DNA of 63,101 nucleotides, the filler included, from Hausera hauseri (lineage: Eukaryota): NCBI GenBank assembly GCA_046269625.1. It is 12 parts of 12 records of this genome, joined end to end, with 100 filler letters (N's around TTAATTAATTAA, not from the genome) between each part and the next. Parts side by side here need not be neighbours in the genome. Positions count along the whole stretch, not along the records: positions 33,893 to 43,004 come from JBJURY010459911.1; 11 more parts are not named here. One strand, 5' to 3'. Shown piece by piece: positions 1,906-62,602 of this stretch. Made by a program: the position numbers and the translations under genes. Every line of letters begins with the position of its first letter. The first letter of the stretch is position 1. The notes beneath the pieces are model-generated. The model was given only the letters and a program-made list of their open reading frames with translations, was not told the DNA's origin and made no database searches.

Positions 1906-2179
1906 TGACACACCGGATCCAACAACTAACTCTGCACATACCTTCCTTGACTCCTTCAATCCTTCTTCTGTTCTACCTCCACGACAACCTGCTATTCAAA
2001 AACCCGCATCAATACAAAAAAACTATGCTAAACGACATACCGACTAGTTCTCAAGCTGCTGACACGTCAAATCAACATTTAACTTCCTACCAACCAATTC
2101 AGCAAACAATCAAACAACATGGTAAAAACACAAGACAGTTACTTTCAGCAAATAAAGCAGAGAACAAAATATTGATAAG

Positions 2180-3190
2180 TTTAGTGTTCTCATCCTTGTG
2201 GATGGAACTTTTAAATATAAAAAGGATAAACACGTAAACACAGTCGAATAAAACGACTGAAACAAACACTGATAAGACGAGAAAACAATGAAAGCTATTT
2301 TTATTCAGTTCTCGCAAATCGTCCGCCGAGGCGTACGAGTCCTCGGTTGAGGAAAGGGCCCGGCCAATCCTCGGATTTCGGCGCGGACAAGTCGGAATGT
2401 CGTCTGAACTAAAATCAGTTGATGCTGGTTCAAGTCTTGTCGGCTCCAACCGGCGTCGACGGAGCGGTATGGGAACTTCGACTGGGCTCACTGTCCTAGC
2501 CTTCCGCTTGTCAGCAGTTCGACAGTCAGGAATCAACTGGCTCTCCGATGGAGCCAGCGACTCGAATAGCCGACCTGTTGCCGCCATCAGTCTTATAAAG
2601 ACTGGCAAGAAGGCGGAGGAGTCGAACAACCGTCGGCTATCTCTATCGGCGTAGAACCTCCGGAAATGCCCTGTCTGGAGGCAGTACGGCTCGTTTTCGG
2701 GCACTCCGCTGAGATGCCGCACGAAACGGCTCCGCTGCAGCAACTCTCGAACCGTACGATAATCAGAATAAGAACGGCACGGAGCTTGACGGTCCCGGAT
2801 GCGGTGTCATTTTTCGCGGGAGATGGTGTCTCGCCGGGCTGTGTGTTTTTGATCTTCTGATCGGGTTTGCTGTGCCGAGGCGGTACGCCTGTAGGTGTTG
2901 TTTTCCGCTCCGGCGTGTGTTGGTCGGAGTACCTTGGGAATGCGATACACCGGAATAGATACAGTCTTCCTTTCGCCAACTGTGGCGTCTGGTTGGATGG
3001 CTGCATCGACTAGGATGGCCCTAGTGTCTTCTGTGACTATTGGTTCTCCGGGCTTCGCTGTTCGGGTCGCCTGAGTTCTCGTTCCATTGCTACTGCTAGC
3101 GATATCGACTCGCATTGTTTTCGTGCTTTCCTTGGTGACGGATACACCGTTTTTCGATAATTTGGTTACTGTATTCGACTTTTCTGGCAT
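2180..3190 (-). pseudogene. LTR-encoded protein of unknown function (single frame, one in-frame TGA at 2807-2809, open to the LTR end)
   Basis: ORFs 2807..3190 and 2099..2743 are in the same frame; core LQRSRFVRHL..YADxDSRRLFDSSxFxPVFIRLMAA..FESLxPxExQLIP shared with 39429-40424. Confidence 0.8.
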
Positions 3191-3511
3191 GCCTGTAGAT
3201 ATTTTTTGAATAATTCTGTCTTTTCTTGAACTGTGGATTCAAACAAATGGATCTGAATCCACATATTTTGAATGTTGATAATTTTGCAAGTGCTGGTCAC
3301 TTTGGCACCTGTAATCCTGAATTTTAATTTTTCTTTTATAATTTATTATAGTTTCGTGTGGAACAAATTTTGGTGTTTAACGAATCCGTGATTTTGTTTC
3401 TGATATTTGATTTTGTATTTTTGTGTTTAATTGGGCATGAATTTGTGATATTAAGTGATTTAGTTTAACTTAAGTAGATTAAATATGTTTTTTGTAAGGT
3501 GGAACCTTACA
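2180..3511 (-). mobile_element. Solo LTR (~1.33 kb) of the element-B family, flanked by 5-bp TSD ATAAG
   Basis: Minus strand starts TGTAAGGTTCCACCTTAC and aligns end to end with 39077-40322, which is followed by a PBS; ATAAG at 2175-2179 and 3512-3516. Confidence 0.85.
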
Positions 3512-15002: not shown

Positions 15003-17268
15003 GAGTGCCACTTATTTACATTGAAATATTAAAATTGTAATTTTCTTAGGTCTTACCCTCCTTATTTGTTCCATTTGATGAAAAAACACTAAATATGAAG
15101 TTTGAGAAGTAAATTTTAATATTTAGGGGTAGCTCAATCAACAAAAGGTTGTTAAAATTATGAAATTCCGACAAAAAATGAATTATGCAATTACTTGACA
15201 GCAATACAAATTATCCGACTGACAATAGACAAACACTTTGACTCAAAGTACATTTATTAGATGTATATGTATCAGTGTAACAGAAAAAATATCAGTCTTT
15301 CTTTTCAAGAGTATCAAACAGTCATTTTTTACTATTAGGGTACATTCTACGATGATCCTCTACATTTTGTAATAAGGATTGTAGTTGCATTTCATCATTG
15401 GTCATACGTCCACTGTACTCCTGAATGAGTGCCGCTGAACGTTCAGCATGATCATTCACTACATTAAGAGCTTTAATTGTTTCGCTAGCTTCTTTATAGT
15501 CATCTCTTGCCTCCAACGATGGTGGATCAACAGAAAGATAACTTACCAGAAGGTCTAACATTTGTAACAGTGACATGGACTTAGTTGTCACAAAATCTTC
15601 CAAGTTTTTGTTTTCAAATAATTGAAGGTCAATCGTCTTTTCCTTAAAGCAGCTTTGTTTGGCTTGTTTATCCAGGGCACTTATCATATATCTTTTTGTA
15701 GACACACTTTCACGACTATCGAAAAAAGCCAAAGAAACTAGTTCTTCGGTTAGATACCATAGATGTTTTGAAAGTTTCTTTACTACTGCCTTTGAGATAC
15801 TTGGATGAATAGTAGAATACTTGATCAACGATTTCATAAGCAACAAATCATTGTATGGAGCATTTAAAGCCTCGGATGCAGAGATCCTAGCTTTCATGTA
15901 TACACGAACAATGAAAATACACACATCGGTTAAACCTTTCTCTTCTTTGGGTGTAAGCATAAACTGAAATTTGAACATCCAGATCTTTAAACTATAAATA
16001 CATTTAGACATCCCGCGAGCATTGTGCATGGCTTTAGGTGACTTAAATCTCACACCTCTTTCAGGCGAGGTTCCAAGAAAAATAAGGACAAGTTCTACAA
16101 ATTCCTGATAATCTCCTCTCAGTTGACTGTGAGACTCTTCGAGGTACTTCATTCCAAACTTAATGGCATCATATTTTATATCCTTTTCAAGTTCAGAACG
16201 TGTTAATTGAACTTACCGTTTCGTGCTTGTTGGTGTCAATGAATTTCCAACAATCTTTGAAACGTTTGAATAGTGGAACTTCAGAAGATGTGGCTCCAAT
16301 GCACGCTTCAAACACTGAACCTATGGTCAATTCCACCACATAGTGCCTGCATGCTAAAGCCAAGAGTTTCTTTTCAAGCTTTTCTCTAATAGAACACATG
16401 CGCCAGCATTACGGCCAGTATTTGTACTAATTGTGTCAAAACACAGATCGGATGTTGTTTGATATGCCCTAGTCTTCAATGGCTTCAAAAACTGCTGCAG
16501 CTTGTGCCTCTCTTGTTCCAGATGGAAGCTTGGCAACGACCAGTAGCTGGGAAATTCCTTTTCCAGAAACTAGTAGAGGCAGGCGATCCACTATATCTTT
16601 TCCATTAAGGTCAGGAATTAATTGTCTGTCCCATTAAATAACAAGAGGTTGAAAATGAGCCTTTATGTCGGTTATTTTCTGAGCTCTTTGCTCCATCCAT
16701 TGCCAGCGAATTGACTCTCTAATTATTGTGAATTCATCAAAATTTAATCCAAAGCTTTTGGTGGTTTCCGCTATAACATAAACAGCCTTTCGATTTGACA
16801 CTTTTGTTCGATCCTAAGCCGTTGCAAGTTGTGGTGTAACTACAGTTTTTCGTCCCCGTTTTCTTTTCTGTCCCTTAGGTGATTTTTTGTTGGTTTTCAC
16901 CTCTTTTCCACTTACGTTTGTTGTGCTTGTGTTGCCATCAGATTCAGTATAAGTAGATGATTCAAGTTCAATTATAATAGAATCTGTCAACTGTCTAACT
17001 TTCTCTGTCAACTTTCGGGTGTTTACTTTTACTTCCCTTTGAAGACGCTTTTTCTCTCTGAGAGCGAGTATATTATCAACACCTATCATTGATCCACATC
17101 TACCTTTTTCCCGTTGTGCTATTAGAAAGTACTTGTCTTCTTGCAACATCAAAAATATCTTCTAATTCGGAAACAAAAGCTGACTCTTTACCTTGCTGCG
17201 TTGATGAAATTCTACCGTTGTTTTTCTTCAAAAGTCGCCACTCGTCGAATAACTTTTCAAGTTTCATT
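15003..17268 (-). mobile_element. DDE DNA transposon, probably Sola2-type, degenerate
   Basis: DRLP, CFDTISTNTG..GAC, LACRH, AMHNAR, HLWYL, VVNDHAER motifs; GAGTG terminus at ~15003. Confidence 0.7.
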
Positions 17269-21818: not shown

Positions 21819-21836
21819 TGGCGCCCGAACAGGGAC
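21819..21836 (+). promoter_or_regulatory. Primer-binding site, tRNA-Lys(UUU)
   Basis: TGGCGCCCGAACAGGGAC, the canonical 18-nt Lys3 PBS. Confidence 0.95.
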
Positions 21837-22109
21837 TGTTTGTGGACTGACAGGTAAAATCTCACCAAGGGTAAAATAACTAAAACATTTTACTCAGAAC
21901 AGCTTAAAAATTCCTCCAAGACAGCCACGTAAATCTAAAGAAGAAGCCTTAAAACGCTTGTCTGTCAATTCCACACGGTTGTTAGATAGACAAAAATCTG
22001 TGGAAAACAAAAATCAAAGTTAAGAGATTTAACAGTAGACATTGAACCATTAAATTTTAATGTAGAAGATTATAGTTTACTAGATAACCAAATATTAGAT
22101 CAAATTGAT

Positions 22110-23640
22110 ATGGCTCAACAACAACAACAACAACAACCACAAATAAATGTAACTGTTTTTGAGTCCTTGAACATATCCAAATACGACGGAGATCTTGCCG
22201 GATAATTAAAATTTCTAAAACTTATCAATTATTAAGTGAAGGTTTAGGCATGGACAATAAAGCTTATATTAGACGTATGCCGTTGTATCTAGACAATGTA
22301 GCATTGGATGTCTTTCAAGAATTAACACGAGATGAAAAAGCTAATTAGAAAAATTAACAGCTGCGCTTATCAAAATGCTAATGCCCACAGTAACTCCCAC
22401 AGCCCAGCTAGCTATATTACAGAAACGTTTTCAGTTACCCGAAGAATGCAACCACATGACCAAATTGCTAAATATCTTAAAAAATAGGGGATGAAATTTA
22501 TATTAGATCAGGATATATTAAAATATAATCAAGAAGGACGACTACTAGTAGTAGTACCAAAATGTCTAAGAAATGCAGTTATGTGGCAAGAACACGATGC
22601 TAATATGGCTGGTCACCCGTCTAGTAGAAAGACAAAGAAAAGAGTAAAGTTGAAATATTATTGGCCAACCTTAGAAGCAGATGTACAGAATTGGGTAGAT
22701 GAATGTAAAATGTGTGCTACTATGAAAAATAAAGGAGAACGCTATAAGCCCCCTTCGAAACTTTTACCTGAACCTAATAGTCCAATGGAATTCTGTGCTA
22801 TGGATTTTTCAGGGCCATTTCCTCTTACACATAATGGAAACAAATTTATTTTATTATGCACCGATTATCTTACGACTTATTCTATCTTAATTCCAACCAA
22901 AGATTTATTAGCCATAACTGTATCCAAAGAATTCATCAATAATATACTTTGTCAATTTGGAGCACCATGCTACCTACTAACAGATAGAGCCCCAAACTTT
23001 AGAAGTCATTTGTTAAAAGAAATAACTGACATATGCCAAACAAAAAGATTACTAACCACAGCATATCCACAATGTAACGGAAAAGTGAAACGACTAAATT
23101 ATACTGGTCAATGTCTCCTATCAACAATGATAGACAAATCTCAGAAAGATTGGGATGAGCATTTAAGAGTGGTCCAATTTGCAATTGCAACCACCCCAAC
23201 ATCTAGTAAGTATACACCATTCGAATTACTTTATGGTAGAAAACCTCTTCTACCATAAGATATACAGCTGTTACCAGAAAAAGATATGCCTATTAATACA
23301 GACGAAGAAGTCACTCATGCAAGCGTAGTACATAGTCTTGCCAATTATTGGATTAAAGCCAAACAGGCTATACCAGAATATAAAGAAACTTATAAAGAAC
23401 AATATGATAAGAAGAGTAAACCTCATAATTTTCAACCAGGTGATAAAATAACGGTACATTATCCGGTTGACAAACCAGGCAAATCTTTAAAGCTAACTCG
23501 CACTAGGAAAGGACCATATCTAGTAGTAAAATCTACCCCAGAAAATGTCTTTATAGAAAAGGGTACTGGCAAGAAAACCAGGATAGAATGTGTATCTGTG
23601 CAGAGGCTAACTAAAGGACCAAAAGAAATCATGGCTCAAG
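22110..23640 (+). mobile_element. Gypsy gag fragment joined directly to integrase (PR-RT-RH deleted)
   Basis: Gag-like MAQQQ..KYDG..PLYLDNVALD; then GHPS..YYWPTL..CKMC, MDFSGPF, TDRAPNF, TPFELLYG, KGPYLV. Confidence 0.9.
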
Positions 23641-24656
23641 AGGAACTCAAGTATTCACTTCGATCATATAAAAAAACAATTATTAAACCAGCTTTTAGTC
23701 TAGAAAAAGTATTATTTATAGTAATAATGTTCGGATTAATTTTATCAACAGTAAGTCAAACATTTGTGACTGAACCAGTAAATGCAAACCTAGAATTAAA
23801 AATAAAATTAGTTTGGAAATACGAACCTGACTTAATTGATGGTTTGCTCGAAGGAGAGCCTGTATTTTCAAAAATATGATATTTACTAATTCCATCTAGT
23901 AAAAAGGAAATATGGTTACTTACAAAAAGGTGTAAAGTACCTCTCTTGAATGAGGTATGTCTACTACAACTTTATTATATTCCAGTAGACGGCTTGTTGA
24001 CCAAACAAGACGAATTTGAACCCATAGCTAGACAAATTCACGTAGAAAAATAGGACATCTTTCTTCTTTACTCAAGATAAAGATACGGAACGTAGACTAA
24101 TACATAAAGTACAACTAAAAAGACCTACATTAAATTTAGACGTCGATCTGCAGATCACATATTTCCCAAAGTTCCTTATACATATATCAGGTAAGGAAGC
24201 TCTGCACATTCATGTACATATGTCAATTCCGCACTTTTTTGAAATTATAATACCAACAACTAGTTCAATTGCAAGCACCGGACCTACAGTCGCAATAAAT
24301 AAGAAAACCTTATGGCTTAAACCTCAAGTCGTTCACAAATTACCATCATTCTCAAATATAATTAGAGATACGTACATCGAATTTAAGAATCTAATTCCAG
24401 CCTCTCAACTAATAATGATATCATGTATAGGAAAGTACCATATTATATATTCAATTATTAAAGAGAAGGAGAGAACTACAAGATGTTCTAACCTTCAATC
24501 AGATGAAGAATACTTAATAATCTTTGCACAAGGAAAACAAACAACACATAATAAAATTAGAACACATACAAAAATCCATTCAGTCAAAAATATGCAACTT
24601 CAGCTAATATATCAAACAACAACAGATAGGGGATACTATATATGACCCAAAACCGT
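23640..24656 (+). pseudogene. Env-position ORF downstream of integrase, with a signal-peptide-like start
   Basis: KVLFIVIMFGLILSTVSQ is in frame with integrase; coding continues through stops and a frameshift to ORF 24220..24645. Confidence 0.5.
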
Positions 24657-33792: not shown

Positions 33793-34563
33793 NNNNNNNN
33801 NNNNNNNNNNNNNNNNNNNNNNNNNNNNNNNNNNNNTTAATTAATTAANNNNNNNNNNNNNNNNNNNNNNNNNNNNNNNNNNNNNNNNNNNNCATTCACT
33901 TAAAACAATCTATAAACTATTATGATCATTTAGAAGATATTCTAATAAATTTTTTGATTAAATTATAACCGAAGAAATATTCTAAAATACAATCGGCGAA
34001 TAATGTTGCAATTTGATTTAATTCTGCGAAATTACGTAATGGGGTTACTGTGTAGCAGGTTGCACTATCGATTTCGGGAAGACCATAAATCAACAGTTCC
34101 CATTTTTATCTGTGTTGCGTTTAGTTTCAATCAATATGACATTAGATCGACATAGTTTTCTATTTGTTCGGGATAGTTGTTGGAATAAAATCTGTTCGTC
34201 GGACCACAATGAACCTATGTGGTTCTGGTAATGTTGGCTAATATTGGCTCTTCGAATTAATTCAATTTTACATTGAGACGAAATATGATTGTTGTCTGCT
34301 AAAATCGACTCCAAGAATTCAAGCGTTGAATTTAACCACTGTTTGAGATTTTTCACGATTATTTCTGAATTTACAGCTTTATCACTGTTATTTAATATTC
34401 TTTACTAATTCCTCAATAAATTGATGAATGGGTTTATTCTTAGACGTAATGAGGTTTATTAACCAAATCTGATTTTGGTGAAATAAGCAAATGATTCTAA
34501 ATAACAATTCAACTCTTTGACTAAGTTCTGGTTTTTTCTGAAGAATTTTTTTGTTATCCGAAT

Positions 34564-34711
34564 TGATAACGGAATACAAATTGGCATTCTCAAAGCGAAA
34601 ACTCGGGGCCTGTCTATGCGCCCGACGCGCCGGCAGCGGAAAACCGGCCGTGCCCAACCGAATGGGACGGAGTGCAACGATAGACACGGACACCACATCA
34701 CTCCCCCCCCG
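34564..34711 (-). promoter_or_regulatory. Polypurine tract and 3' LTR of element A (LTR starts TGTGGTG at 34697; far end uncertain)
   Basis: Minus strand GGGGGGGGAGTGA followed by TGT, downstream of the integrase. Confidence 0.7.
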
Positions 34712-35189
34712 TGGCAAAGTTGAAAGTACAAAGAACAAAAGATAGAGAGAAAAAAACGCAAAATGAAAAGTGTGTGTTAGTTGAGCGTAGTGTGTATAAG
34801 GCGTTGAATACCTTTGTCTGATTTTTCCCTAGTATATTGGCTGAATGTGACTCTGCGTATTGTGCGTTTGTGCAATGTGCCTGTTTGCAGAGATTAAGGT
34901 TTTGGAAAAAAATTAGTAGATTTTAGTGTAGATGTTGTGTCGTGCGCAGACGAAGAGGAAGATGAAGAAGGTGACGAAAACGGTGAAGAAAGAAGTGTGA
35001 TTGTTGAAGAATGAGGATTAAAGATATTGAGAAGCGTGTTAGGAGACGAAGGAGGGATGGAAGGTGTAGTGGCGGAAAAGGAGGAGAAGAAGAGGTTGGA
35101 GTAGAGATTGGAGTTGTGTTAAGTTAAGGAGTAGAAGAAGAAGATGAAACAGAAGGAGTGATAGTAATAGAAGGAGGAAGTGTAGGAAA

Positions 35190-38100
35190 TTATGAAGCAA
35201 GACTAGGCGCGAAAGAAGAAGGTGGAAATGGTGTAGCAGTAGGTGTAGTGATAACAGGTAGTGGAGGAGTAAGGAAAAAAGTTGAAGTGTCGGTTGGTAA
35301 GGTGTCATCGACGAAGAAAGCAGGCTTTAGATTAATGATGTGTACTGTGAAGTCTTTACCGTCTTTGGATATTATGGAGTTATGCGAGTTTAATTGTAAA
35401 AAATTGTAGTGACCCAGGTACCGTGGTTGAAAACCGCAAGGCGCTTGATTCTTCAGCCATACGAATTTAGCCGTGTATAAATCATCAGGTAGGTATGTTT
35501 TATCGTTATGGAGTAACCTGCAAAACGCGTCCTTGCTGACCTGGACGAAATGATTTTGTGCCGTCCGTTTCGTCTTGTCTGTGGGAGTGTCGTCTAGGGC
35601 GGTTAGTTCGAATAATGACCGGACAGGAGCTCCAAATAATGCTTCAGTAGGTGAGCATCCTGTAGAGTTGGACGGAGTGTTGTGCCAGCCAAGCAGAACG
35701 AACGGAAGAAGATTAGTCCAACTACTGTTGGACTCTGTAAAAATTCTTAGCGACGTTTTCAGTGTGAGGTGGAAGCGTTCTAGGAGGACATTCAATTAGG
35801 GATGATAAGGCGTTGTATGAATGTAATGAATCCCCAATCAATTAACAAGGGATTTAAACAGGTTGGATTCAAATTGTGGACCTTGGTCCATGATGATGAA
35901 ACTAGGTGATCCAAATCTGCTAATCCATGTGCGAATGAAAACGTCCGCTATGGTGTCGGTGTTTGTGCTCCGCAGATGGATGGCTTCTGGCCATCGAGAG
36001 GAACGGTCCATCATGGCGAGGATAAATTGATGACCGTTGTCAGGAGGAAGAGGTTTAGCGATGTCGATATACACCGACTCGAAACGCGATGTGCAGGGAA
36101 AGTGGAATAGTAGTAGCTTTAAATGCTTAGTAATTTTGTATTTTTGGCATGCCACACACTCCTTAATCCATGCCTGCAAATCAGAATGCATTGATGGCCA
36201 TGTTATTTGTCGATGGAGGTGAAGAAAAGTGGCTTTGGCACCAGGATAGTGTAGTGAGTGCACATGATGAAATGCTTGCCTGTGCAAGGAAGGTGCTAGA
36301 ATGATTACTGAATGACCTAATTTGGATGTGTTCAAAGCCACGCCGTCAATGATTGTGCAAGATTTAAAAGACTTAAGCATGTCTGGAGGTGGCTGCTTTT
36401 GTTGAAGTTGTTCTTGCGTAAAAATTGGAGAAAAACTTATCGAACTAACTGACCTTGACAAAAAATTAGCAACAAAATTGCTAACTCCGTTTATATGTTT
36501 AATATCGAAATTAAATGTCGACAAATATGATATTTGGCGTTCTTGGCGTGTGGAAGGGTGTTTCATGGTCATGATGTTAAATAAATGCTTATGATCAGTT
36601 TTCAGAGTGAAATGGCGAGCGACAAGTAGGTGTAAAAAATACTTTAGAGCGAGCACGATTGCCAATAGTTCTCGATCAAACGTGGAATATTTTGTTTCAG
36701 GTGTTGTTGGTTTGCGAGAAAAGAATTCCAAGGGTGGATTTTCTCCATTGTAGATCTGAAGAAGTACAGCGCCTACAGCAGTGGTTGACGCATCTGTGGT
36801 GAGGATGAGCTCTGCATCAGGCATGGGAAAGGCAAGAATATCAACAGTTTTAAGGCCTTCACGTAGCCTGTCGAATTTGTCAACCAATTCAGGTGTCCAC
36901 TGAATTGGTTGATGTTTTTTACCGCCGCTTAGGTGTTTGAACGGAGCCGTTAATTCTGAGCAGTACGGGACGTATTTATGCACAAAATGTAATGTGCCAA
37001 GTAAGCTACGCATTTCGGTGGTTGTACATGGCAAATGTATGTTTTTAAGGGCTTCGACTCGGTCTGATTGTGGAGATTGACCGTCTGGTGTGATGACGTG
37101 ACCTAAGAAATTAATGCGTCTCTTGAAAAAGTTGCATTTGTCGAAGTTAATCTGTAGGTTATGGTGGTGAAGGCGTTGGAATATTGCGCGAAGGTGTTCT
37201 TCGTGCTGTTTGGTTGAAGATGAAACGACTAGAATATCGTCTATATAAGGGTGTGCAAACGAGAAATTTTCAAGGATTGAATCGATGTACCTCTGAAAAG
37301 TTTGTGCAGCATTCCCTAAACCGAATGGCATAAAGAGGTATTCGTAGAGGCCAAAAGGAGTAGTTACTGCGGTTTTTTCGATATCTTTAGGTGCTACCGG
37401 TATCTGATGGTAGGCTTTAGCAAAATCTATGGTCGAATAGATGGTGGTGGAGTTAAGGCAAAGTAGGATATCCTTGATGAGTGGCAAAGGATACGCGTCC
37501 ATGATTGTCAGGTTGTTAAGCTGTCGGTTGTCACCGCATGGTCCGAAGGTACCGTCCTTTTTTTGAACAACATGTAATGGTGATGACCAAGGAGATTGGA
37601 ACGGCATACTATGCCAAAACGTTCTAGCTCGAGAAATTCGGCTTCTACAGCCGGTCTACGGCGAGATGACAGAGGCCGTACCTTTTGGCGTATTGGACGT
37701 TTATGCTGTGTTACTATATGGTGTAAAGTGCTGTTGGCAGGAGTGAAAGTATGGTCTTTTTTAAGGACGCGTGGACATGATTTGTTGATAAATTGCTGTA
37801 TCGTTGCATGTAGCTGTGAGAGATTTGGTGAAGGTGGTGAAATGGCTTAAGTGGTAGCAAATGCAATTCGTGAGTTGTTAGGCGATGTGCAGTCAAGTGG
37901 TATTTGGTGTAATATGGTTCAATTGAAGATGGCTTTGGATGAAGTTACTTCGCTGAATGGAACAGTGTTGGTGTGAATACCACACTTATCGACATCAAAT
38001 TTCGATCGCATATCAATGTTATTGTTTAAAAATTTCCGAACTGAATTATTATTGTGAAAATTCAAATTATTGTTATAAAAAATCGAATTATTCGCTGACT

Positions 38101-38500
38101 TTTTTAAGATAGACTTCCGTATTCCGGTCGACCGCGCGTAAGTCGAAATACTATTAATATGTCCAGAAATGTCGCCAACGGTGCCTCTCCTCAAACATCG
38201 TTAAGTGTAGTCCACCAGTAGATTGTAATATGAGAGAAAGTCAGATCCAAGGATTGCCGACTGGACGTTAGCGACTGTGAACGTCCAGCGGAAAGGCGCA
38301 GAGAAATCGGGCAAAGTGTAAGATAGTGTAGACGTACCCGAGATGTACAGCGTCTGGCCTGAAGCAGTATATAAAGGCTTAAGTTTGAATGGAGAATTTT
38401 GTGTAGGAAAGGTTTGCGGTAATAGAGAAATTGCTGCCCCTGTGTCTATGAGAAAGTGAACAGATTGAGTCATAAGGGCAGTGATTGCTGCCTTTAGCGT
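35190..38500 (-). mobile_element. Element A pol: protease, spacer, RT, RNase H, integrase (589-aa intact core 35838-37607)
   Basis: FLIDTGAAISLLP, SPWSSPLHVV, PYIDDIL, LTTDAS, TDHK, DQGPQFES. Confidence 0.97.
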
Positions 38501-38583
38501 GAAAACTGCGAAAGAGGTGTGTCGGCGTTCCGAATGTGAAAGAGTGCCCTCGCCAGAGTTTGCCGTGACTTTTGGCGGCGAAC

Positions 38584-38860
38584 TTAGTTTTTTGGAAAAA
38601 ATGAACTGGGACGACTGTGAGAAATGAAGGTAGTACGTCCGTTGTTCGTGTTAGATTTGAATGTACAGTCAGGTATACATTTACGTGCTTGATTTTTGAA
38701 TCTTGCAGGGTAAATGCAAACAACGGTGTCGGAGGAAAACTCCTTATCATAAAATTGGCATCCCAGGCAGCACCTCTGAGCATTAGCGTTGAATCTGCTG
38801 TGATAATAGCTGATCGACGAACGCGCTGGTGATGGTGAGCGGTTTTGTGACGTAGATAAT
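38584..38860 (-). mobile_element. Element A Gag C-terminus with two CHCC knuckles; capsid region missing
   Basis: SYYHSRFNANAQRCCLGC..VCIYPARFKNQARKCIPDC; AAAAAAC slippery site at 38587-38593. Confidence 0.8.
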
Positions 38861-38864
38861 TCAT

Positions 38865-39074
38865 TCCACCGCGGATACGGAGATGCACGTTGAAGCAAGC
38901 GTGATTGGAAAAGGAATGTACAATTTCATTAAGGTGTATAATAGCGCCGTTTAGAGTGAGATAGGAATCTGAGGAACCAAGGAAAGAAGAAATGCGGGTC
39001 CGAAGGGTGGGGATGTGTGGGTGTGTTCTGTGGAGGGCATATACGTGTTTGTTGTTATAAAAAAAGAAAATGGA
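38865..39074 (-). CDS. Ubiquitin-like domain of element A (ends LRIRGG|M)
   Basis: SIFFF..TLRTRISSFLG..YLTLNGAII..CFNVHLRIRGG aligns with ubiquitin (QIFV..NVKAKIQDKEG..RLIFAGKQL..TLHLVLRLRGG); ~70 aa. Confidence 0.8.
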
Positions 39075-39076
39075 GG

Positions 39077-40322
39077 TGTAAGGTTCCACCTTACGAAATA
39101 TTAAAATTTACATTAAGACAAACCAAATCAGCAAAATGAAAATTTTTTACTAATAACAAAATTTAAAATTCAAAAACCTCAAAATTTAAATAAATTAAAA
39201 TACCTAAAATAAAATAAAAAAAAATAGATAAGTTGTAAAAAAAACAATAATCACGGACTCACCAAACATAAAAATTTGCAATTAAAATAAATCAGGATTA
39301 CAAGTGCCAAAGTAACCAGCATCTGTAGCCAACAAAAAATCAAAAAAACAAAATTTGTGGATTTAAACTCACTTGTTTAAATCCACAGTTTAAAATCTGA
39401 ACAGTTTATTCAAAAGAAAAAAAACAAGATGTCCAAACCATCGGAATGCAAAAATGGCAAGATGTTGGCAACAAAAGCAAAACCTGGGAAACCCATTTCC
39501 ACGAAAGCTGCAAAGGCTACACTAACTGACGTCGCCGTCCCTGAAAGGAATATGCGGCTCACCCAAAACTACCGGATCTCTAAGCAAACCGAACCAGATC
39601 CGACGATGATACGAGACCAGGATGCCATGAAATCCGGCGATTCAATCACCCGCGAGGCCGCCAAGGTACCCCAACCGATACTTAATGAACAAGGGAATAC
39701 AAACGGCCGCTGCGTCGCCTCGACAAAACAAACCCGATCCGAAGACCGGAGCCGTACCACACGGCGAGCCAATTGTCAAAGAAGCCGCCAAGCTCCGTGC
39801 TGTTCATATCCCGATTATATGACGGTGTGAGAGTTCTTACAACGAAGCCGCTTTGTACGGCACCTCACCGGGTTGTCCGAGGGCGATCCACATTGCCTCC
39901 CTCACGGACATCTCCAAAGGTTATATGCCGACGGAGACAGCCGACGGCTGTTCGACTCTTCCACCTTCGTACCAGTCTTTATAAGACTGATGGCGGCGGC
40001 CGACCGGATGTTCGAGTCACTGGTTCCTTTTGAGAGACAGCTGATTCCGAACTGAAGAATCTCCGAATTACGGCGGATCAGGGCGTACAGCTCCAGCTCT
40101 GACGATCAGCCGGCTCCACCCCGTCGACTCATCCAAACGGAACCGTCCCTATCCAGTACGGACGAATCGCACACCTCGGCGGACGATTTACGAGAACCTA
40201 ATAAACGTTACTCTCGTTATTTTGTTGTCTTCCTTACTGTTGTTTCAGTCGTTTTATTCGACTGCATTTACACTCTTTTCCGTTTTTTACTTGCAAGTTT
40301 TATAAAATGTGAAAGCTCTAAA
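39077..40322 (+). mobile_element. 5' LTR of element B (abuts the 5' region of element A)
   Basis: Starts TGTAAGG, AATAAA at 40200, PBS follows; homologous to solo LTR 2180-3511. Confidence 0.88.
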
Positions 40323-40427
40323 ATGGTGGCAGCGGTTACCGCATTCACGCCCTATAACACAAACGCAGCCGTTAAAATAAATCCGGCTCAAACACTTCAC
40401 ACCGTCATTGATAACAATCAAGCTTAA
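39429..40427 (+). pseudogene. LTR-encoded ORF of element B, read through U5 and PBS (in-frame TGA at 39828 and 40053)
   Basis: ORFs 39429 and 39873 share a frame, which is open again from 40056 to 40424; homologous to 2180-3190. Confidence 0.8.
40324..40336 (+). promoter_or_regulatory. Primer-binding site, tRNA-Leu type
   Basis: TGGTGGCAGCGGT is complementary to the ACCGCTGCCACCA 3' end of metazoan tRNA-Leu(AAG/UAG). Confidence 0.85.
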
Positions 40428-40761
40428 ATTCACACAAGTGCCGTCGAAATTAATCCGGTCACACATTCGTGCATCACTAAACATGATCACGTTATACCCA
40501 CTAACAGTTGTATCATCAAAAGCAACTGCAACCAGAAAATTACAACGCGTAATATCAAACAAGTGCCAATATATTCTAGCACTAACACACGCGTCAACAC
40601 CGTCAAATCGGAATACAAATCCGATTATTCGAACCGTGCCAAAATAGCACACACCAAGCGAAAATTCACTATTTAACAATTCACCCAATCGTCAGTCGAT
40701 TAACCTAGACAACAGAATTTACCATGGTGAAACAACATCGACCGACTCTACGCCAAACGAA

Positions 40762-41885
40762 GTGCAACTCATTGTACAAAACTGACATCAGACGAAAGCT
40801 CATCGCTTCCCGTCGACCCTAACTATGTCGGGAATGCTGTAAGTTTTAAACCAACAGTATCCCGAGCATACATTTTCATATAATGGAAAATTATTATGCA
40901 AGAATAATTGCGTAATCAATAAAATTTTGGTTGGCAATACCACCATACTGGCGACTCCGAAACTAAAAGGACGCGTTGACAACCTTACGCCTGACAAAAG
41001 AGAAACTGCTTTAGCAACACAGGCCAAACCACCAAAATTAGCATGTCCAACCTTTTTTATAGGTTCGAACGGAACGCCATTGAAGTGGTTTTATGTGTTT
41101 GAAACATGGGCTACACAATGCAGCATCACTGGCCAACTAAACAAGGCCTTAACACTCATTTAATACCTGCTGCCAACAACGCTTGCAGCCATAACGGATC
41201 TGGACACGCTACTGTCAGATCAAAAGCCGTTCGACATAATCAAAGCAGCCAAGTGCAAAGCATATCTGCCATCCCAACAGGACCAGTTCAACTTGATCTT
41301 CACCAAGCGACAGACAGGGAATATAAAACCGTCTGCTCTGCTTTACAAGTTACGCCCAGACTTGAGCAATGCTGAGTTGGACCTCCGCACCAACCAACAC
41401 ATACTACGGCGCTACTTCCTAAGTAGTTTGCCCAATCAAATTTAAGCGGCATTGGTGCTATTACCGCCCGATACCACTTTGGACGATATGACATCTAAAG
41501 CCGACAAATTATACGAGTGCATTAAAGGCACCGTAGAATCCGCACCAACGGAAAACATACACTCCGTCACGGCGACCCAGTAAAATCAGCTGGACATAAT
41601 TATCGCCGCAATGCAGGCACTTGTAACGCACAAGAATCTTCCAGCCAGGCACAAACCGTCATCTCGGTGCCAATCCCCCAAGAGGAAGAAAGGCAAATTT
41701 TCCAAAATTTGCCACTTCCACACACGATTCGGCGAATCCGTCTATAAATGCTACCATGGTTGTCAATTCGACAACCCATCTGCAAACATAAAAATGCAAG
41801 ATACTTGCATTTATCGTAATCATTTTGGTCCAGATGCAAAAGTCTGTCGACCCGGCTGCAAATTTCACAAGCCGTCAAAAACTAA
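40762..41885 (+). mobile_element. Element B UBL-Gag (UBL 40762-40974, capsid, two CHCC knuckles), with premature stops
   Basis: VQLIVQ..FSYNGKLL..NTTILATPKLKGR in frame with KLACPTFF..KWFYVFE; ICHFHTRFGESVYKCYHGC and CIYRNHFGPDAKVCRPGC. Confidence 0.82.
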
Positions 41886-41989
41886 ATGGGACCAGGCGAC
41901 TAACGGCACGTCTTCTGGAAACTCAATCACCATAACTGCCGTATACAAATAGCGAAATCATTGTAGATGCTATTTTTACCCTCGAGGTG

Positions 41990-42612
41990 GAGCCACTAAG
42001 CTCCGACATCTCGAAACAGCTCTATTTTTTAATCGACACAGGTGCAGCTCTATAGCTGATACCTAGCGCATACGCTAGACCTACGCTGGTCTCGCATGAA
42101 TCACTCAAAGCTGCCAATGGCACGCGCATGTCAACCACAGGTACACTGTACCTACAATTTCACATACAAGGCCGACCATACGCTTGGTCATTCATATTGG
42201 CCGATGTCATACAACCAATCTGTGGTTCTACTTCCTAGATCACTACGATTTCACAGTTGATTGCCGAAATCAACAACTCACCAGCGGAAGCAATCCACTG
42301 TCTCCACCAGCATTCACTCTAACCATAAACGTAGTCACGGGTATAAAAATCGCAAATCCCATTGACATCGCAACATTGCTGCAAGCGCAATACCCCAACC
42401 TGTTGAAACTCTCAGCACAACCAACACGGAAAGAGGTGAAAACATCACACTTTCTCGTTACATCATGTGATCGACCGATTCTGCAACCCCGGAGGGAGCT
42501 TGACCCTGTCAAGCGAGCAGCGCGGAAGCCGAATTCCGACACCTAGAAGAAACAGGCATCATACGCCGCTCCACATCACCATGGGCATTACCATTGCACA
42601 TGGTTCCAACGT
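41990..42612 (+). mobile_element. Element B protease and RT start (truncated)
   Basis: FLIDTGAA, LKAANG, GIIRRSTSPWALPLHMVP. Confidence 0.88.
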
Positions 42613-42614
42613 CA

Positions 42615-43004
42615 TAATTTGCAGCCAGGACAAATGTGACGAATGGATAGGTGGACTTGAACAAATCCATTGGTATGCCATTGCTGATGTTTTTCTTCAG
42701 CAAACCCATGTTACGCACAGTAGATTGCATATATGTGAAAACAAAATCATTAGACTCAATTCTTGTTTGTACGTCTCAACAAAATCCGCATTCCGGCCAA
42801 ACTGATGTAATTCACATCGCTATGGGTAAACGTTACCGAATCGGTCGTATTACTGCCCGTTTGTTGAACAGTCGTTTGAAATGTAACGAAAACATATTTC
42901 GGTAATCGCATACCACAAAACAGTGCATCTTTGTAAAACGTAGTTGAACCTTTCGGTATGGTGTAAAAGATGAGTTCTGTGCGTTGTATCGGTTAACAGG
43001 CATT
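42615..43004 (-). pseudogene. Polinton/Maverick (adintovirus-like) major capsid protein fragment
   Basis: A(Y)PIQRTE..TIPKG..DALFCG.RLPKYVFV..FTH.DVNYISL and ..YMQ..NGI..F..YPFVTFVLA match the Polinton MCP C-terminal jelly-roll pattern. Confidence 0.75.
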
Positions 43005-48111: not shown

Positions 48112-49430
48112 CTAGAGGCGAATACAGTTTTTTTGGATTGGTGAGTTAGAACGGTTACTGTTAGAGACATTGGGACGTCTATTAGTGGTGCAGTTTTTGT
48201 TAGTTTTATAGTTACAGCCAGAAATACAATTCCGAGAATTAGATCCGAATTTTGCATGATAGATGCAAATTAAGTTATCCGAGTGTAGATTCGATGAATA
48301 ATATCTACACCCTAAAAAGCATTTATTTGCTTTGTTGTTACATTTGTTGTGGTAATAACATATGAATGACCGCGTTGGTGACGATGTTCGACTTTTGGAA
48401 GGAAAACGTGTTCGATAAGGCGAGGGAGCATTCCGTCGATGTAAAGAAAGGTCATTCAGCCTGTCATTGATGGTGTTGATTGTGCGTTGTATTGCTGCAT
48501 TTTCGGCTCGTAATTGGTTCATCTGGTGCTCAATGGATGTATGTCGTTGGTTGTCATCGTTTGTAATAGCGGCTGATATGATAGGTTGTGATTGGATTTG
48601 TAAGACTTCGTGTGCTTTATTTGCCAATTCAGCCAGTTTATCTAAGGCTGTAGAATCTTCAACAACGGTAAGTAAAGCCCTGATTTGAATGGGTAACGCA
48701 TTAAGGAAATATCGTTGGAGTAGATCCGGATTATGTTCCTTGGTGACACCTAAAGTACGTAAGTGAGCCAACGATGTACGTAGGAAATCACTAAGTTTTT
48801 GTGTCCCCATTGCGTTTTCTTTAAAGAAGCGCTGCATTATTGAATAAACTGATGGTTCTGTCTGTTTTAACACAGCATCGAACAGTTGGGTATAGAGGTA
48901 AGAGTGTTGAAAGATGTCCAGTAAGTTGTGGATTGAGGCTTTTATGGAATTTGGTAGAAGGTAAAGTAGATTACGGGCTTTGGATAACGAGTCTGTAATA
49001 CTGTTGGACTGTAACCAGAGTTGATGAAAGTGGAGCCAAGTTTTGCTAGACTTATTGTCTATAAAACATTCAGAACAATATTGTGAAGTACTGATGATTT
49101 TTGTAAGAATTTGTATCGGTTGCAGTAGGTGGATGGCTTGATTTGGGGTAGTAGAGAATGGATTTCGATTTTGTGGTCACCTTATTCTTGACGTCACTGG
49201 TTGATGGAGAAATCATACCGTCGCGGATTCTAGGATTGATATGTATACACAGATACTCATGTGAGGCCATGATGTGTGGGTGGTCGACTAAAATGAAACC
49301 GTTGTGAGTCAGGTAGAAATCGCTGTAGACGGAGGTATTATGAATGATAGCGTATAGTTGTGATGTTTCAATACGTTGTCTGACATGTACTATTTGTATT
49401 AGATTATTATTAACATAAAAATAGAGGGGG
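48112..49430 (-). mobile_element. Element C UBL-Gag (UBL ~49217-49428, capsid, two CHCC knuckles, AAAAAAC slippery site at 48127-48133)
   Basis: PLYFYV..SDFYLTHNGFIL..IHINPRIRDG|M; FLNALP..LAELANK; ICYYHNKC..KCFLGC and ICIYHAKFGSNSRNCISGC. Confidence 0.85.
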
Positions 49431-49539
49431 AATGATGGTGGTGTACTGTAAACCGGGCAGTGTGATATATCGATGTGGTTCTTCGAAGGTAAGAGAGTTG
49501 CTGTGTGTTGATGAATATGTCCGGTCTGTGGACTCACTA

Positions 49540-49934
49540 TGCTTAATGGATCTATTGCCCTTATAACCGATGCGTATTGAAAAATAACGACAATAACTAG
49601 GAGACGGATTCTGTCCAAAGTCAGAAGCTCTAGTTAGGTACTGGCTGTAATCAGAAGAATAAATCGGGCCAAATTTATGATAACGTGCCTTACTTCTACC
49701 TCTTCTCATTAAGGATTCATCAAATTTCATATATGGTTCGTTGTCGAGTTTTGTAGGTTTGACAAGACAAAGTACGGGTGATATACAATTAACAATGCCG
49801 CATACTGACTGGGCTATTTCATTAATTTCTACGTGGCCATCATCGAAATCACGCATTCCTACGATAGTCAAATACTTCATAACGTAAAAGCCTAGTTTAC
49901 CAATTTTGCCCAATGAAGCTAATTTGAATTTCAA
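49540..49934 (-). CDS. Unidentified ORF fragment abutting element C
   Basis: Part of a 174-aa ORF of protein-like composition; family not recognised. Confidence 0.3.
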
Positions 49935-50299
49935 TGTAGAATGAGTAACTTTATTAACAGTTGCAACATATCTCAGAAGACTGTCTGGGCAAGAACTAAA
50001 GTGAAACCACTGTAGAAAAAATAGAGGAAATTTATGANNNNNNNNNNNNNNNNNNNNNNNNNNNNNNNNNNNNNNNNNNNNTTAATTAATTAANNNNNNN
50101 NNNNNNNNNNNNNNNNNNNNNNNNNNNNNNNNNNNNNGGGTCTGACAGAATTGCTCAAAACACATCAAAATATTATAGTATGAAGAGATTTGTTAGCCGA
50201 ATTGAAAGATTCATGACGATGAACCACAATAATAATCCTACGAAAATGTGAACTTTGTAATTGTTACCAAGAGAGATTTGTTAATGTAAATACTAAATA

Positions 50300-60245: not shown

Positions 60246-60626
60246 TCAGTTGGTTAAATATGTTAAAGCTTCAACAATATTGCCTTTGTATTCTCGTAAG
60301 ACACGTTCTGCTTGTGTCCGTGAAATCTCCATTTCTTGAACAATGTAATCCACATCATCTTTATTGATCTTCACTTTTGACAGCTCTTTCTCTTTTTCAT
60401 GCTTTGCCTTTGCTTCCTTGTTCTGTCTGTCACTAACAACTCGCATAGCATCTTGAATATCTTGGGCAGCTATTTCCTTCTCTTCTACATAATCAGTTAC
60501 TTTTTCCAGATCTGCTGCACCGGCATCATGTTTTGCTACTTTTTTGCTTTTTGACTCAGATTCTGCATCATTGTCTTCGACTTCAGGTTCTTCTAAGTTT
60601 GCATGAGGTGTCTCGTTTGTCGCCAT
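60246..60626 (-). CDS. HYPK: Huntingtin-interacting protein K, intact and intronless (126 aa)
   Basis: KHDAGAADLEKVTDYVEEKEI..ELSKVKINKDDVDYIVQEMEISR..AERVLRE.KGNIVEAL. Confidence 0.95.
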   Translation of the reverse strand: MATNETPHANLEEPEVEDNDAESESKSKKVAKHDAGAADLEKVTDYVEEKEIAAQDIQDAMRVVSDRQNKEAKAKHEKEKELSKVKINKDDVDYIVQEMEISRTQAERVLREYKGNIVEALTYLTN

Positions 60627-60945
60627 CTTGTTTTCTTCCTGCTTCACTGAATTAGGTATATATTTCTGCGGGTAGGCCTCTGTTTTCTTCCTGCTTTTCG
60701 ACTGTGTGATCTTTTTCAAGGCTAACAGCCAATTTATAGCGAATAACCATTGTTTCGGGGTCTCTGGTAGGAAAACCGCAAAAGATGCTTCGTCATCTAA
60801 AGCTAGTTCAAGATTTATGGATCCGGATACACATTTATGAAACAAACCAACCATATTATTTCAGTAAACACCCTATTATGTAGGGTTTAGAAAAATAGTC
60901 TATAGACTCATTATATTGCTCCTCTCCACGGAAATCTTTAGTAAA

Positions 60946-62602
60946 TTTTTTTTTTTTTTTTTTTTTAAAGTTTAATAACCCACATCATACATGAAGTGAC
61001 TGTACAACACAGATGAGACATTTTGTTACGGAGAGCATTTACAAAAACAAAAGCATAAAAAGCATATTCCATTAAAATGTGTTACATAAATGAGTGTCGT
61101 CCTGTGACATTCGGACAAATGTATAAGTGTCTAATATACCCTTAATTAATTTTCACATGTGACTGGCAGTTAATAGACGGTTTCCCATTCGTAGGTGATT
61201 GATAACGGTGGGTACTTGTCTTCCGGCTCGTCTGGTTCTAACGCCTTCCAGATGAATACCCCATTGTCATCCGTATATCTGCATACTTTCCTCCAGCCCG
61301 GTTTTTCTTGCTTTATGAGCGTCCTTTCATCTGGCCTTTCTTTGGCGAGGCTGTTTCTTTCCTTGTCGATGAGATCTTCTTCGGAGCTTGTGTCAGTCAT
61401 TTGAGAGTCTGCATCAGCTGTTAGTTCATGAGTATGACCATCGGTTGATGGATCTTCGTCGTCCTCGTTTGTTCTTGATCTTGTACTGTTGTTTGTTGTT
61501 AACCTATGTTTGGCTGGTGTATGTTCTTTCGGTGGAGAATTCCTATGGCCTCTTTTCTTCTTCTTGTGAGTGTTTCCCTTCTTGGAGTAAAGGGCTTCTT
61601 CGTCGAGATCTTCCTTGCTCTGTTGATCATCCGGATTTTGCTCATCTGGGTGCTGTCTTTGCCTGGGTGGGCTGTTGGCGGGGATGATTTCCAGGTGTGG
61701 ATTGTCTTGGTTTAGTGGTTGGGGATGATTAGTTTTGGATTGATTAGCCGGGGGTTCTTTTGGTTGAGAGTCTGCTGCTGCTGTTTGTATGGACGCTTTC
61801 CGAAGATTTTTACGATTTTGCGGGCACTGGTTTGTCCAATGGTCATCTTTGCCACATATCTGGCATTGGGTTCTTCTGCCGGGAACAGTAATCAATATTC
61901 TGCATTTTATCCTGTTGCTATGACTTGCTGCGTTTAGATCCAAATAGTGAGGTACGGCTTTTTTCGGGACGCACGTAAATGTCCATTTATCGTTGTGTAA
62001 GGGGACAGGCAGTGGTTCTGCTTCTGGATCTCCAGAGATAAAGAAAGCCAGCTTCTTGGCGGTCTCTTTTTTTAAGGTTGGAGGCAGCCAATGCATTGTT
62101 ACCTTGGATCTGTCTTTTTCGTAGTGTTCAATGCTGACGGTGATATGTGGGTTTGTGTAGTTCAGGCTGATTCCATGTAGCTTTGAATAGGCTTGAATGT
62201 GAGCTGATTGTGTCAGTGTTGCATACCACTTGAATGGTTGTTCAAATCTGTACAGTGTTCTGAGCCCATTTGGGCCCACTCCCTCTAGCGCCATGAGTAT
62301 GCTTGCCATTTGGGCGTATGTCATTTGACTGGCTTGAGGTCCTGTAACCTTGAGAAGCAACGTGTTGGGCCTGTGAAAGGACGCGCCTTCCAAAGACTCC
62401 TTCACGTCAATGTCGAAGGTTTCAATCTGTGCTGGGAGTCCACTCATTCTGAAAAAGTCACGATCACAAACATTTAATATTAGTGACACCAATCTTAGTC
62501 TAGAAACACCGAAATGTTTCCGGCCATTTTTGTGTTAATTTTTTGATGAAGTGCAAGCCAAGGGCTTCACCCTGGTAGCGTAAAATCTTCCGAAACACCA
62601 AA
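60946..62602 (-). mobile_element. ORF1-only non-LTR retroposon (HAL1-like) with poly(A) tail and 16-bp TSD
   Basis: GGAAATCTTTAGTAAA at 60930-60945 and 62603-62618; 21-nt poly(T) on plus strand at 60946-60966; ATTAAA signal on the element strand. Confidence 0.9.
61170..62447 (-). CDS. L1/Tx1-like ORF1 protein (~425 aa from ATG 62447) with CCHC knuckle
   Basis: VTMHWLPP, VPHYL, ITVPGRRTQCQICGKDDHWTNQCP, charged disordered tail; no stops. Confidence 0.85.
   Translation of the reverse strand: MSGLPAQIETFDIDVKESLEGASFHRPNTLLLKVTGPQASQMTYAQMASILMALEGVGPNGLRTLYRFEQPFKWYATLTQSAHIQAYSKLHGISLNYTNPHITVSIEHYEKDRSKVTMHWLPPTLKKETAKKLAFFISGDPEAEPLPVPLHNDKWTFTCVPKKAVPHYLDLNAASHSNRIKCRILITVPGRRTQCQICGKDDHWTNQCPQNRKNLRKASIQTAAADSQPKEPPANQSKTNHPQPLNQDNPHLEIIPANSPPRQRQHPDEQNPDDQQSKEDLDEEALYSKKGNTHKKKKRGHRNSPPKEHTPAKHRLTTNNSTRSRTNEDDEDPSTDGHTHELTADADSQMTDTSSEEDLIDKERNSLAKERPDERTLIKQEKPGWRKVCRYTDDNGVFIWKALEPDEPEDKYPPLSITYEWETVY

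Follow-up and report, generated by a model that had tools for sequence, protein, structure and literature searches.

A predicted ubiquitin-like domain ending in Gly-Gly, in frame ahead of the capsid in a lineage of Ty3/gypsy retrotransposons

Element B and its surroundings

The analysed stretch of DNA (63,101 nucleotides from Hausera hauseri, hereafter the window) is made up of 12 short contigs of eukaryotic origin with N spacers between them, and the element under study, element B, lies on the plus strand of the piece at 33893-43004. By its capsid and protease, element B is a Ty3/gypsy retrotransposon, and a primer site and an LTR are present. The 5′ LTR (39290-40320, +; boundaries approximate) shares blocks of 72-76% identity with a second, related copy at about 2206-3329 on the minus strand, and this similarity stops just 5′ of the primer site. 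The earlier note had assigned B to a family with a different LTR from elements A and C; the upstream repeat of B has no similarity to the 3′ end of A or to the DNA upstream of C. The primer-binding-site-like sequence TGGTGGCAGCGG (40324-40335, +), which we take to be a match to tRNA-Leu, is overlapped by an in-frame ATG at 40323. It is followed by a translated leader (40323-40761, +) that is predicted to be disordered and has a stop at 40425 and a frameshift near 40650, by the ubiquitin-like domain (UBL; 40762-40974, +) and by a flexible linker (40975-41034, +). Gag (41035-41885, +) comprises a two-lobed capsid, a coiled coil and two CHCC boxes of the form Cx2Hx9Cx3C (41710-41763 and 41806-41859), and matches Pfam DUF7041 with E=0.013, which is under the curated cut-off. 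The start of pol (41939-42620, +), frameshifted and truncated, contains an aspartic protease (about 41939-42238; Pfam E=0.0043) and the first RT residues. Element B has no 3′ LTR and ends at the RT start, with the contig end at 43004; the full PR-RT-RH-IN order is seen in element A and in one genomic locus (L007).

A single frame of B runs from VQLIVQ (40762) over stops at 40783 and 40840 to KLKGR (40960-40974), and onward over KLACPTFF (41035) and WFYVFE (41086) to a stop at 41161. The peptide quoted in the earlier note, which had placed a UBL in frame with Gag, was therefore correct. Its two stops, said to hide this frame, are real, but further stops and the frameshift had been missed: Gag is also interrupted at 41443 and 41581, and stops at 39828 and 40053 lie upstream of the leader. 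The window copy is dead, with stops in the UBL, in Gag and upstream, and breaks off at the RT start. In contigs of four runs (over 40200-42600), the sequence differs from that of the window at all five stop codons, two in the UBL and three in Gag, and in the deepest run the non-window state of these five codons accounts for at least 98% of the summed depth. These stops are therefore private to the window copy.

Elements A and C carry a UBL on the minus strand as well. That of A (38865-39074) ends RIRGG and that of C (49217-49429) ends RIRDG in a decayed copy; the UBL of B is very unlike both (9% and 14% identical), as had been stated. Element B stands head to head with A, inserted just upstream of the UBL of A. 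Most of the capsid of A is lost (38500-38865, −), the CHCC region coming almost directly after RIRGG, and a 605-codon pol frame is retained. No homologue was found for the Gag of element C. A 208-codon open frame 5′ of the UBL of C (49413-50036, −) lies in a different frame and has no Pfam match; part of it presumably resembles a piggyBac transposase motif. Elsewhere in the window we observed a frame of 454 codons that encodes a zinc knuckle and resembles ORF1 of a non-LTR retrotransposon (61170-62534, −), a transposase-like frame (15322-16212, −), a HYPK gene (60249-60860) and a further gypsy element (21819-24645, +) with a primer site at 21819, an integrase and an extra downstream frame resembling envelope in its position.

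An intact relative and the spread of the layout

Among 5.8 billion proteins searched, one relative was found: P0002, a natural, stop-free protein of 648 aa with 76% identity over 379 residues. Its domain ends KLKGG, followed by TGANAT, and Met is absent from the whole interval between GG and the capsid motif. This agrees with the suggestion that the terminal GR of B is a near form of GG, P0002 being the only witness of the KLKGG end in this family. Identity between B and P0002 amounts to 67% in the UBL and to 57% and 38% in the two parts of the leader. The leader of P0002 is open and colinear with that of B, and both proteins read MVAA at the primer site.

By sequence, the UBL of B has no useful Pfam match (ThiS came up at E=0.26) and P0002 matches no ubiquitin among PDB sequences. 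Neither protein matches PF00240 (ubiquitin), and position 44 is Ser. The AlphaFold2 model of the window stretch, made with X at the stops and 29 alignment rows, is a beta-grasp with a pLDDT of 83. The top Foldseek matches were ubiquitin, SUMO and ISG15 (probability 1.00, E about 2e-4, TM about 0.6), and the matches listed were ubiquitin, SUMO, ISG15 and UBL domains, with 53 at E < 0.001; VIA aligned the model to UBX, UBL and SUMO domains over about 70 residues (Z 8-9.5, rmsd 2-3 Å). Because the first alignment contained near-ubiquitin rows, P0002 was refolded with 20 rows free of a Pfam ubiquitin match, and its residues 269-344 again matched UBLs. The P0002 model shows disorder in the leader and in the linker that follows GG (pLDDT < 50, for the linker at residues 348-363), and residues 366-537 align to the MLV and PEG10 capsids (Z 9.3-10.6). 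The models confirm 40762-40974 as a predicted beta-grasp UBL in frame with a gypsy Gag. Stops or GR kept without any ubiquitin-like structure, which the earlier note had named as the outcome against it, are not what P0002 presents. The predicted fold does not indicate the UBL family that was captured, and matches to SUMO, UBX and PB1 tie with those to ubiquitin.

With phmmer, P0002 gave 371 matches at E < 1e-10 among 1.84 billion representatives, of which the best 150 (50%-cluster representatives) were examined. A UBL-like stretch ending in GG ahead of the capsid was found in 31 of these 150, after two proteins with longer linkers had been added by eye and two chance GG matches removed. Capsids are about 31% identical at the median, which supports the claim that the layout is old. 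All but one of the 31 belong to a single lineage, which is CsRn1-like and has its CHCC boxes doubled; two boxes occur in 29 of 32 UBL-bearing proteins and one box in 109 of the 119 others. When 30 UBL proteins were scanned for Pfam ubiquitin, 10 matched and 2 passed the cut-off. None of 30 clusters looked up had an informative name, host exons are fused into the gene models behind several database proteins, and no locus was found in viral contigs. The cluster of P0014 comprises 8 near-identical proteins, which points to young copies in its host.

The 150 representatives, window B and C and 10 loci made up the 162 rows considered; scoring was not possible for 100 that begin too near the capsid or for 13 without the 5′ part. 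The lineage holds 45 rows: 40 are natural and have GG, 24-60 or more residues ahead of the capsid Trp, two are the decayed window copies and three begin too near the capsid to tell. In outgroup Gags with long N-termini, GG was absent in five, and two outgroup rows showed a chance match to the pattern. On the capsid tree (LG+G4; 78 of the 162 rows, with 29 short-N-terminus rows chosen by hand), the UBL rows together with window B and C lie on one side of a branch with support of 99/96, and the same lineage was obtained under a mixture model (94/87; 34 rows). The Gag of element C falls within the lineage. B and P0002 form its deepest branch, a basal place that may be a long-branch effect.

In P0042 a UBL-GG, with a Pfam ubiquitin match at E=2e-9, is joined to an ordinary Gag with one CHCC box, and the protein stands among ordinary Gags in the tree; joining it to the lineage was not rejected by the AU test (p=0.17), and it is possibly a separate gain of a UBL or a gene-model chimera. 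In the lineage member P0011 the predicted protein opens with a primer-site-like MVSEE and reaches the capsid after only about 20 residues, possibly through loss of the leader and UBL. In P0019 and P0171 a primer-site-like MVSEV is followed by a fragment of a 5′-nucleotidase and then by the UBL, the fragment representing either captured host sequence or a spliced gene model.

Conservation, replacement and the upstream reading frame

The UBLs are about 15% identical at the median, compared to 31% for the capsids. Among 35 divergent UBLs, positions 15, 26, 30, 43, 50 and 67 are hydrophobic in 97-100%, and position 72 is Arg or Lys in 29, whereas position 74 is so in only 15. Ile44 is replaced by Thr or Ser in 23 of them. 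Since the rows were chosen by GG and a hydrophobic residue 73, those columns are partly circular. The persistence of Arg/Lys72 while Ile44 is gone suggests that the tail read by proteases was kept and the receptor patch lost. The residue after GG is Ser in 17 of 43 rows, Asn in 6, Ala in 5, Thr and Gly in 4 each and Met in 3, with Gln, Lys, Val and Asp once each. Pro is found in none of the 43, compared to a linker frequency of 9% (P=0.016), and a primary destabilising residue in one, compared to 22% in the linker (P=4e-4), both P values being too small because the rows are related. Which residues count as primary destabilising is decided by the N-degron classes, and deubiquitinases are not known to cut ahead of Pro. 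A Met near the UBL start occurs in only 2 of 42 UBLs, and L007 has no Met from the primer site to the capsid. In elements A and C, as in the three rows of the 43, Met comes right after the GG position, so that Gag could start there without being cut.

To follow the frame upstream we used a capsid motif to retrieve 19 genomic loci, all from one sub-lineage, of which 11 include the primer site 5′ of Gag. In 8 of the 11 no stop occurs from the primer site to the UBL, over 62-166 codons for which shuffles predict 5-15 stops, and for 7 of these 8 the open frame had P values of 1e-4 to 0.03 each against Markov nulls. The leader is broken in the other three (L006, L014 and L018). In the query's own locus, L001, and its near copy L002, a second open frame crosses the leader. 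The first in-frame ATG lies 94-324 nt 5′ of the primer site, and it is within the LTR in the 4 loci, out of 7, whose LTR start was fixed by a polypurine tract. The UBL is under purifying selection, with dN/dS of 0.18-0.44 in the 7 locus pairs, out of 8, that yielded a value, which bears out the claim that the layout is selected. The capsid gave 0.06-0.10, the leader 0.24-0.76 and the LTR part 0.66-0.85, values of distant pairs being biased low by protein-guided alignment. This climb from the capsid to the LTR part suggests that the front part must remain open while its sequence drifts. No leader matched Pfam. A start codon fixed by the primer site was ruled out, since relatives read through that site in each of the three frames, and a 2A-like reading of the AVEINPA repeats of the leader was dropped for want of NPGP.

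The LTR of element B bears a frame of 298 codons (39429-40322, +) that is in frame with the leader. Its two stops, at 39828 and 40053, compare with 8 and 11 in the other two frames, and its end is hydrophobic, with a hydropathy of 2.4 over 19 residues. The second LTR copy has the same reading frame (2102-3199, −), open where B has both stops. Over a core of 88 codons the two copies gave a dN/dS of 0.18, compared to 0.74 and 1.95 in the other two frames and 0.24 in the mirrored antisense frame. Because of this low value, the LTR cargo of B looks selected as a protein, and the frame is a candidate for a cargo protein that is possibly membrane-anchored. It has no Pfam match and no homologue among longer proteins, the latter being weak evidence.

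In one sub-lineage the slot holds near-ubiquitin. The UBL of P0032 is identical to human ubiquitin at 55 of 76 positions (72%), with Ile in place of Met1, and the UBLs of L007, L012, L013 and L014 are similarly close; five rows are near-ubiquitin with Ile44. The PF00240 cut-off was passed by P0032, P0042, L007, L013 and L014. Capsid relatives of the near-ubiquitin rows have divergent UBLs with the Tyr-Leu-Thr/Ser strand of the lineage. The near-ubiquitin rows come out together on the UBL tree (support 91/95) and are split on the capsid and RT trees, the latter with three unnamed outgroups; on both, L014 pairs with the divergent L008/L009. Monophyly of the near-ubiquitin rows was not rejected by the AU test (p=0.07). 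As one sub-lineage holds near-ubiquitin, the UBL was probably replaced there, and the trees point to a likely single recapture of host ubiquitin into an existing slot, perhaps spread by recombination. It is the slot and its GG end that are conserved, rather than one UBL lineage.

Without their tails, the UBLs of A and C scored 21.8 and 22.6 bits against a profile of the UBLs of other families, and none of 300 shuffles scored as high in either case. For the tail-less UBL of B against a profile of the other UBLs, 7 of 300 shuffles scored as high, and for P0002 19 of 300. Deep co-inheritance of UBL and capsid was not detected (Mantel rho 0.28 over 33 rows and −0.02 in the 447 pairs below 40% capsid identity), and the UBL tree is poorly resolved at depth. 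Since the tail-less UBL of B scores like shuffles, it is either very diverged or was captured separately. The view of the earlier note that the layout is no one-off capture thus holds for the slot and GG, conserved in the clade, but not with certainty for B itself.

Proposed release of Gag and comparison with known systems

Usually, translation of retrotransposon Gag starts at an ATG of its own past the primer site, and the protease of the element carries out the processing. For the UBL lineage we infer a different route. Translation would begin at the first ATG within the 5′ LTR, and the ribosome would pass through the primer site and leader into the UBL. A host protease of the USP/UCH type would then cut after GG, as it does with ubiquitin-ribosomal fusions and with the ubiquitin inserts of pestiviruses, which are cut by host protease. 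In this way Gag would need no start codon itself and would still obtain a defined and stable N-terminus, the linker becoming the new N-terminus, while the upstream peptide might drift (loci L001-L013) or carry selected cargo (the LTR frame of B). Any cleavable UBL would fit such a slot, and therefore the UBL could diverge or be swapped for fresh ubiquitin. Judging from the sequences, host deubiquitinases probably do cut after the Gly-Gly of the UBL and free Gag. Recognition by ubiquitin-specific proteases is not assured, because the UBLs are only about 15% alike and that of B is far from ubiquitin. More tentatively, and with rather less confidence than we would need to prefer it, the whole might be a lineage-wide natural form of ubiquitin-fusion expression: an LTR-opened frame with exchangeable cargo (in B the LTR protein of about 300 residues), release of Gag by a host deubiquitinase, a capsid supply gated by such enzymes and a UBL slot refilled from host ubiquitin mRNA.

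Alternatively, the UBL could stay attached to Gag, where it would help folding or solubility or serve as a binding module akin to matrix, GG being a relic. Its divergence far exceeds what ubiquitin-specific proteases are known to read, and planarian Burro polyproteins are reported to hold an internal Ubi2/SUMO-like motif (PMC6431247). However, a relic GG would not last across capsids about 31% alike while Ile44 was lost, uncut Gag would carry 124-247 residues of unconserved peptide and Pro never follows GG; we consider this reading unlikely. A cut made for the sake of the released UBL, acting as a decoy that occupies host ligases or deubiquitinases, or becoming conjugated to host proteins, would fit the free GG end, the Ile44 of the five near-ubiquitin rows and a UBL dN/dS below 0.45. 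Such a UBL would, however, bear a long unconserved N-terminal extension, most rows have lost Ile44 and surface residues are not conserved across families, which makes this very unlikely. Cutting at GG by the aspartic protease of the element, or by a host protease of the SUMO or Fubi type, is in our view highly improbable: the modelled fold ties with SUMO, UBX and PB1 and the tail-less UBL of B does not score against other UBLs, but the R/K-L-x-G-G tail is like that of ubiquitin and unlike that of SUMO, one sub-lineage has ubiquitin itself in the slot, and retropepsins favour hydrophobic residues at the cut site. That the stretch in B is a chance or neutral leader with a coincidental GG is scarcely credible in spite of the missing Pfam and PDB sequence matches and the weak score against the clade profile, since two models give a beta-grasp with confidence, P0002 has GG at the corresponding place and identity is 67% in the UBL versus 38-57% in the leader.

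If host deubiquitinases do free Gag, this would be a new mode of Gag expression, in which a frame read from the LTR receives its first cut from host ubiquitin proteases, and a new point of host control over transposition. The UBLs would then form a natural library of domains retaining only what deubiquitinases need. The value of the window copy of B is that it marks the deepest branch and bears the apparently selected LTR frame. In searches of openly accessible full-text articles we found no report of a GG-ended UBL ahead of a retrotransposon capsid; an entry in Repbase or in a supplement could exist.

The planarian giant gypsy elements Burro and GYPSM1 also have a ubiquitin/SUMO-like motif in a gypsy polyprotein, but it lies 3′ of a CCHC Gag among accessory domains, and the available part of their description mentions no GG cut site ahead of the capsid (PMC6431247). 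CsRn1-like elements are described as invertebrate-specific, the clade being defined by a CHCC Gag box and the tRNA-Trp primer site TGGTGA(G/C)CCCG; the word ubiquitin is absent from this source (PMC2582038). Together with the HYPK gene of the window, this makes an invertebrate animal the probable host. Element B and its relatives share with them the Cx2Hx9Cx3C box, overlapping gag/pol frames and the PR-RT-RH-IN order, but mostly have two CHCC boxes and a different primer site (PMC2582038). Neither TGGTGGCAGCGG of B nor TGGTGTCAGAAG of the loci equals the CsRn1 tRNA-Trp site, and going by the CHCC box the UBL lineage appears to be CsRn1-like without that primer site.

Fubi-S30, which is processed by USP36 and USP16, and the ubiquitin-ribosomal fusions likewise place a UBL-GG N-terminal to a structural protein. 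According to PMC10611586, USP36 reads Leu71, Arg72, Leu73, Arg74 and the terminal diGly of ubiquitin, and cuts Fubi, which is 36% identical to ubiquitin. In these fusions the UBL starts at the initiator Met, whereas here it is internal, behind 124-300 or more residues that the LTR and leader would encode. In BVDV and other cytopathic pestiviruses a captured ubiquitin unit stands in frame directly ahead of a viral protein, and PMC13517609 reports several independent acquisitions of ubiquitin or UBL inserts, which act as a processing signal and lead to over-processing of NS2-3. In BVDV the inserts are of recent origin, differ little from host genes and are dead ends in evolution (PMC13517609). 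In contrast, the retrotransposon UBL is fixed across a deep lineage, at about 15% identity, and lies ahead of the capsid.
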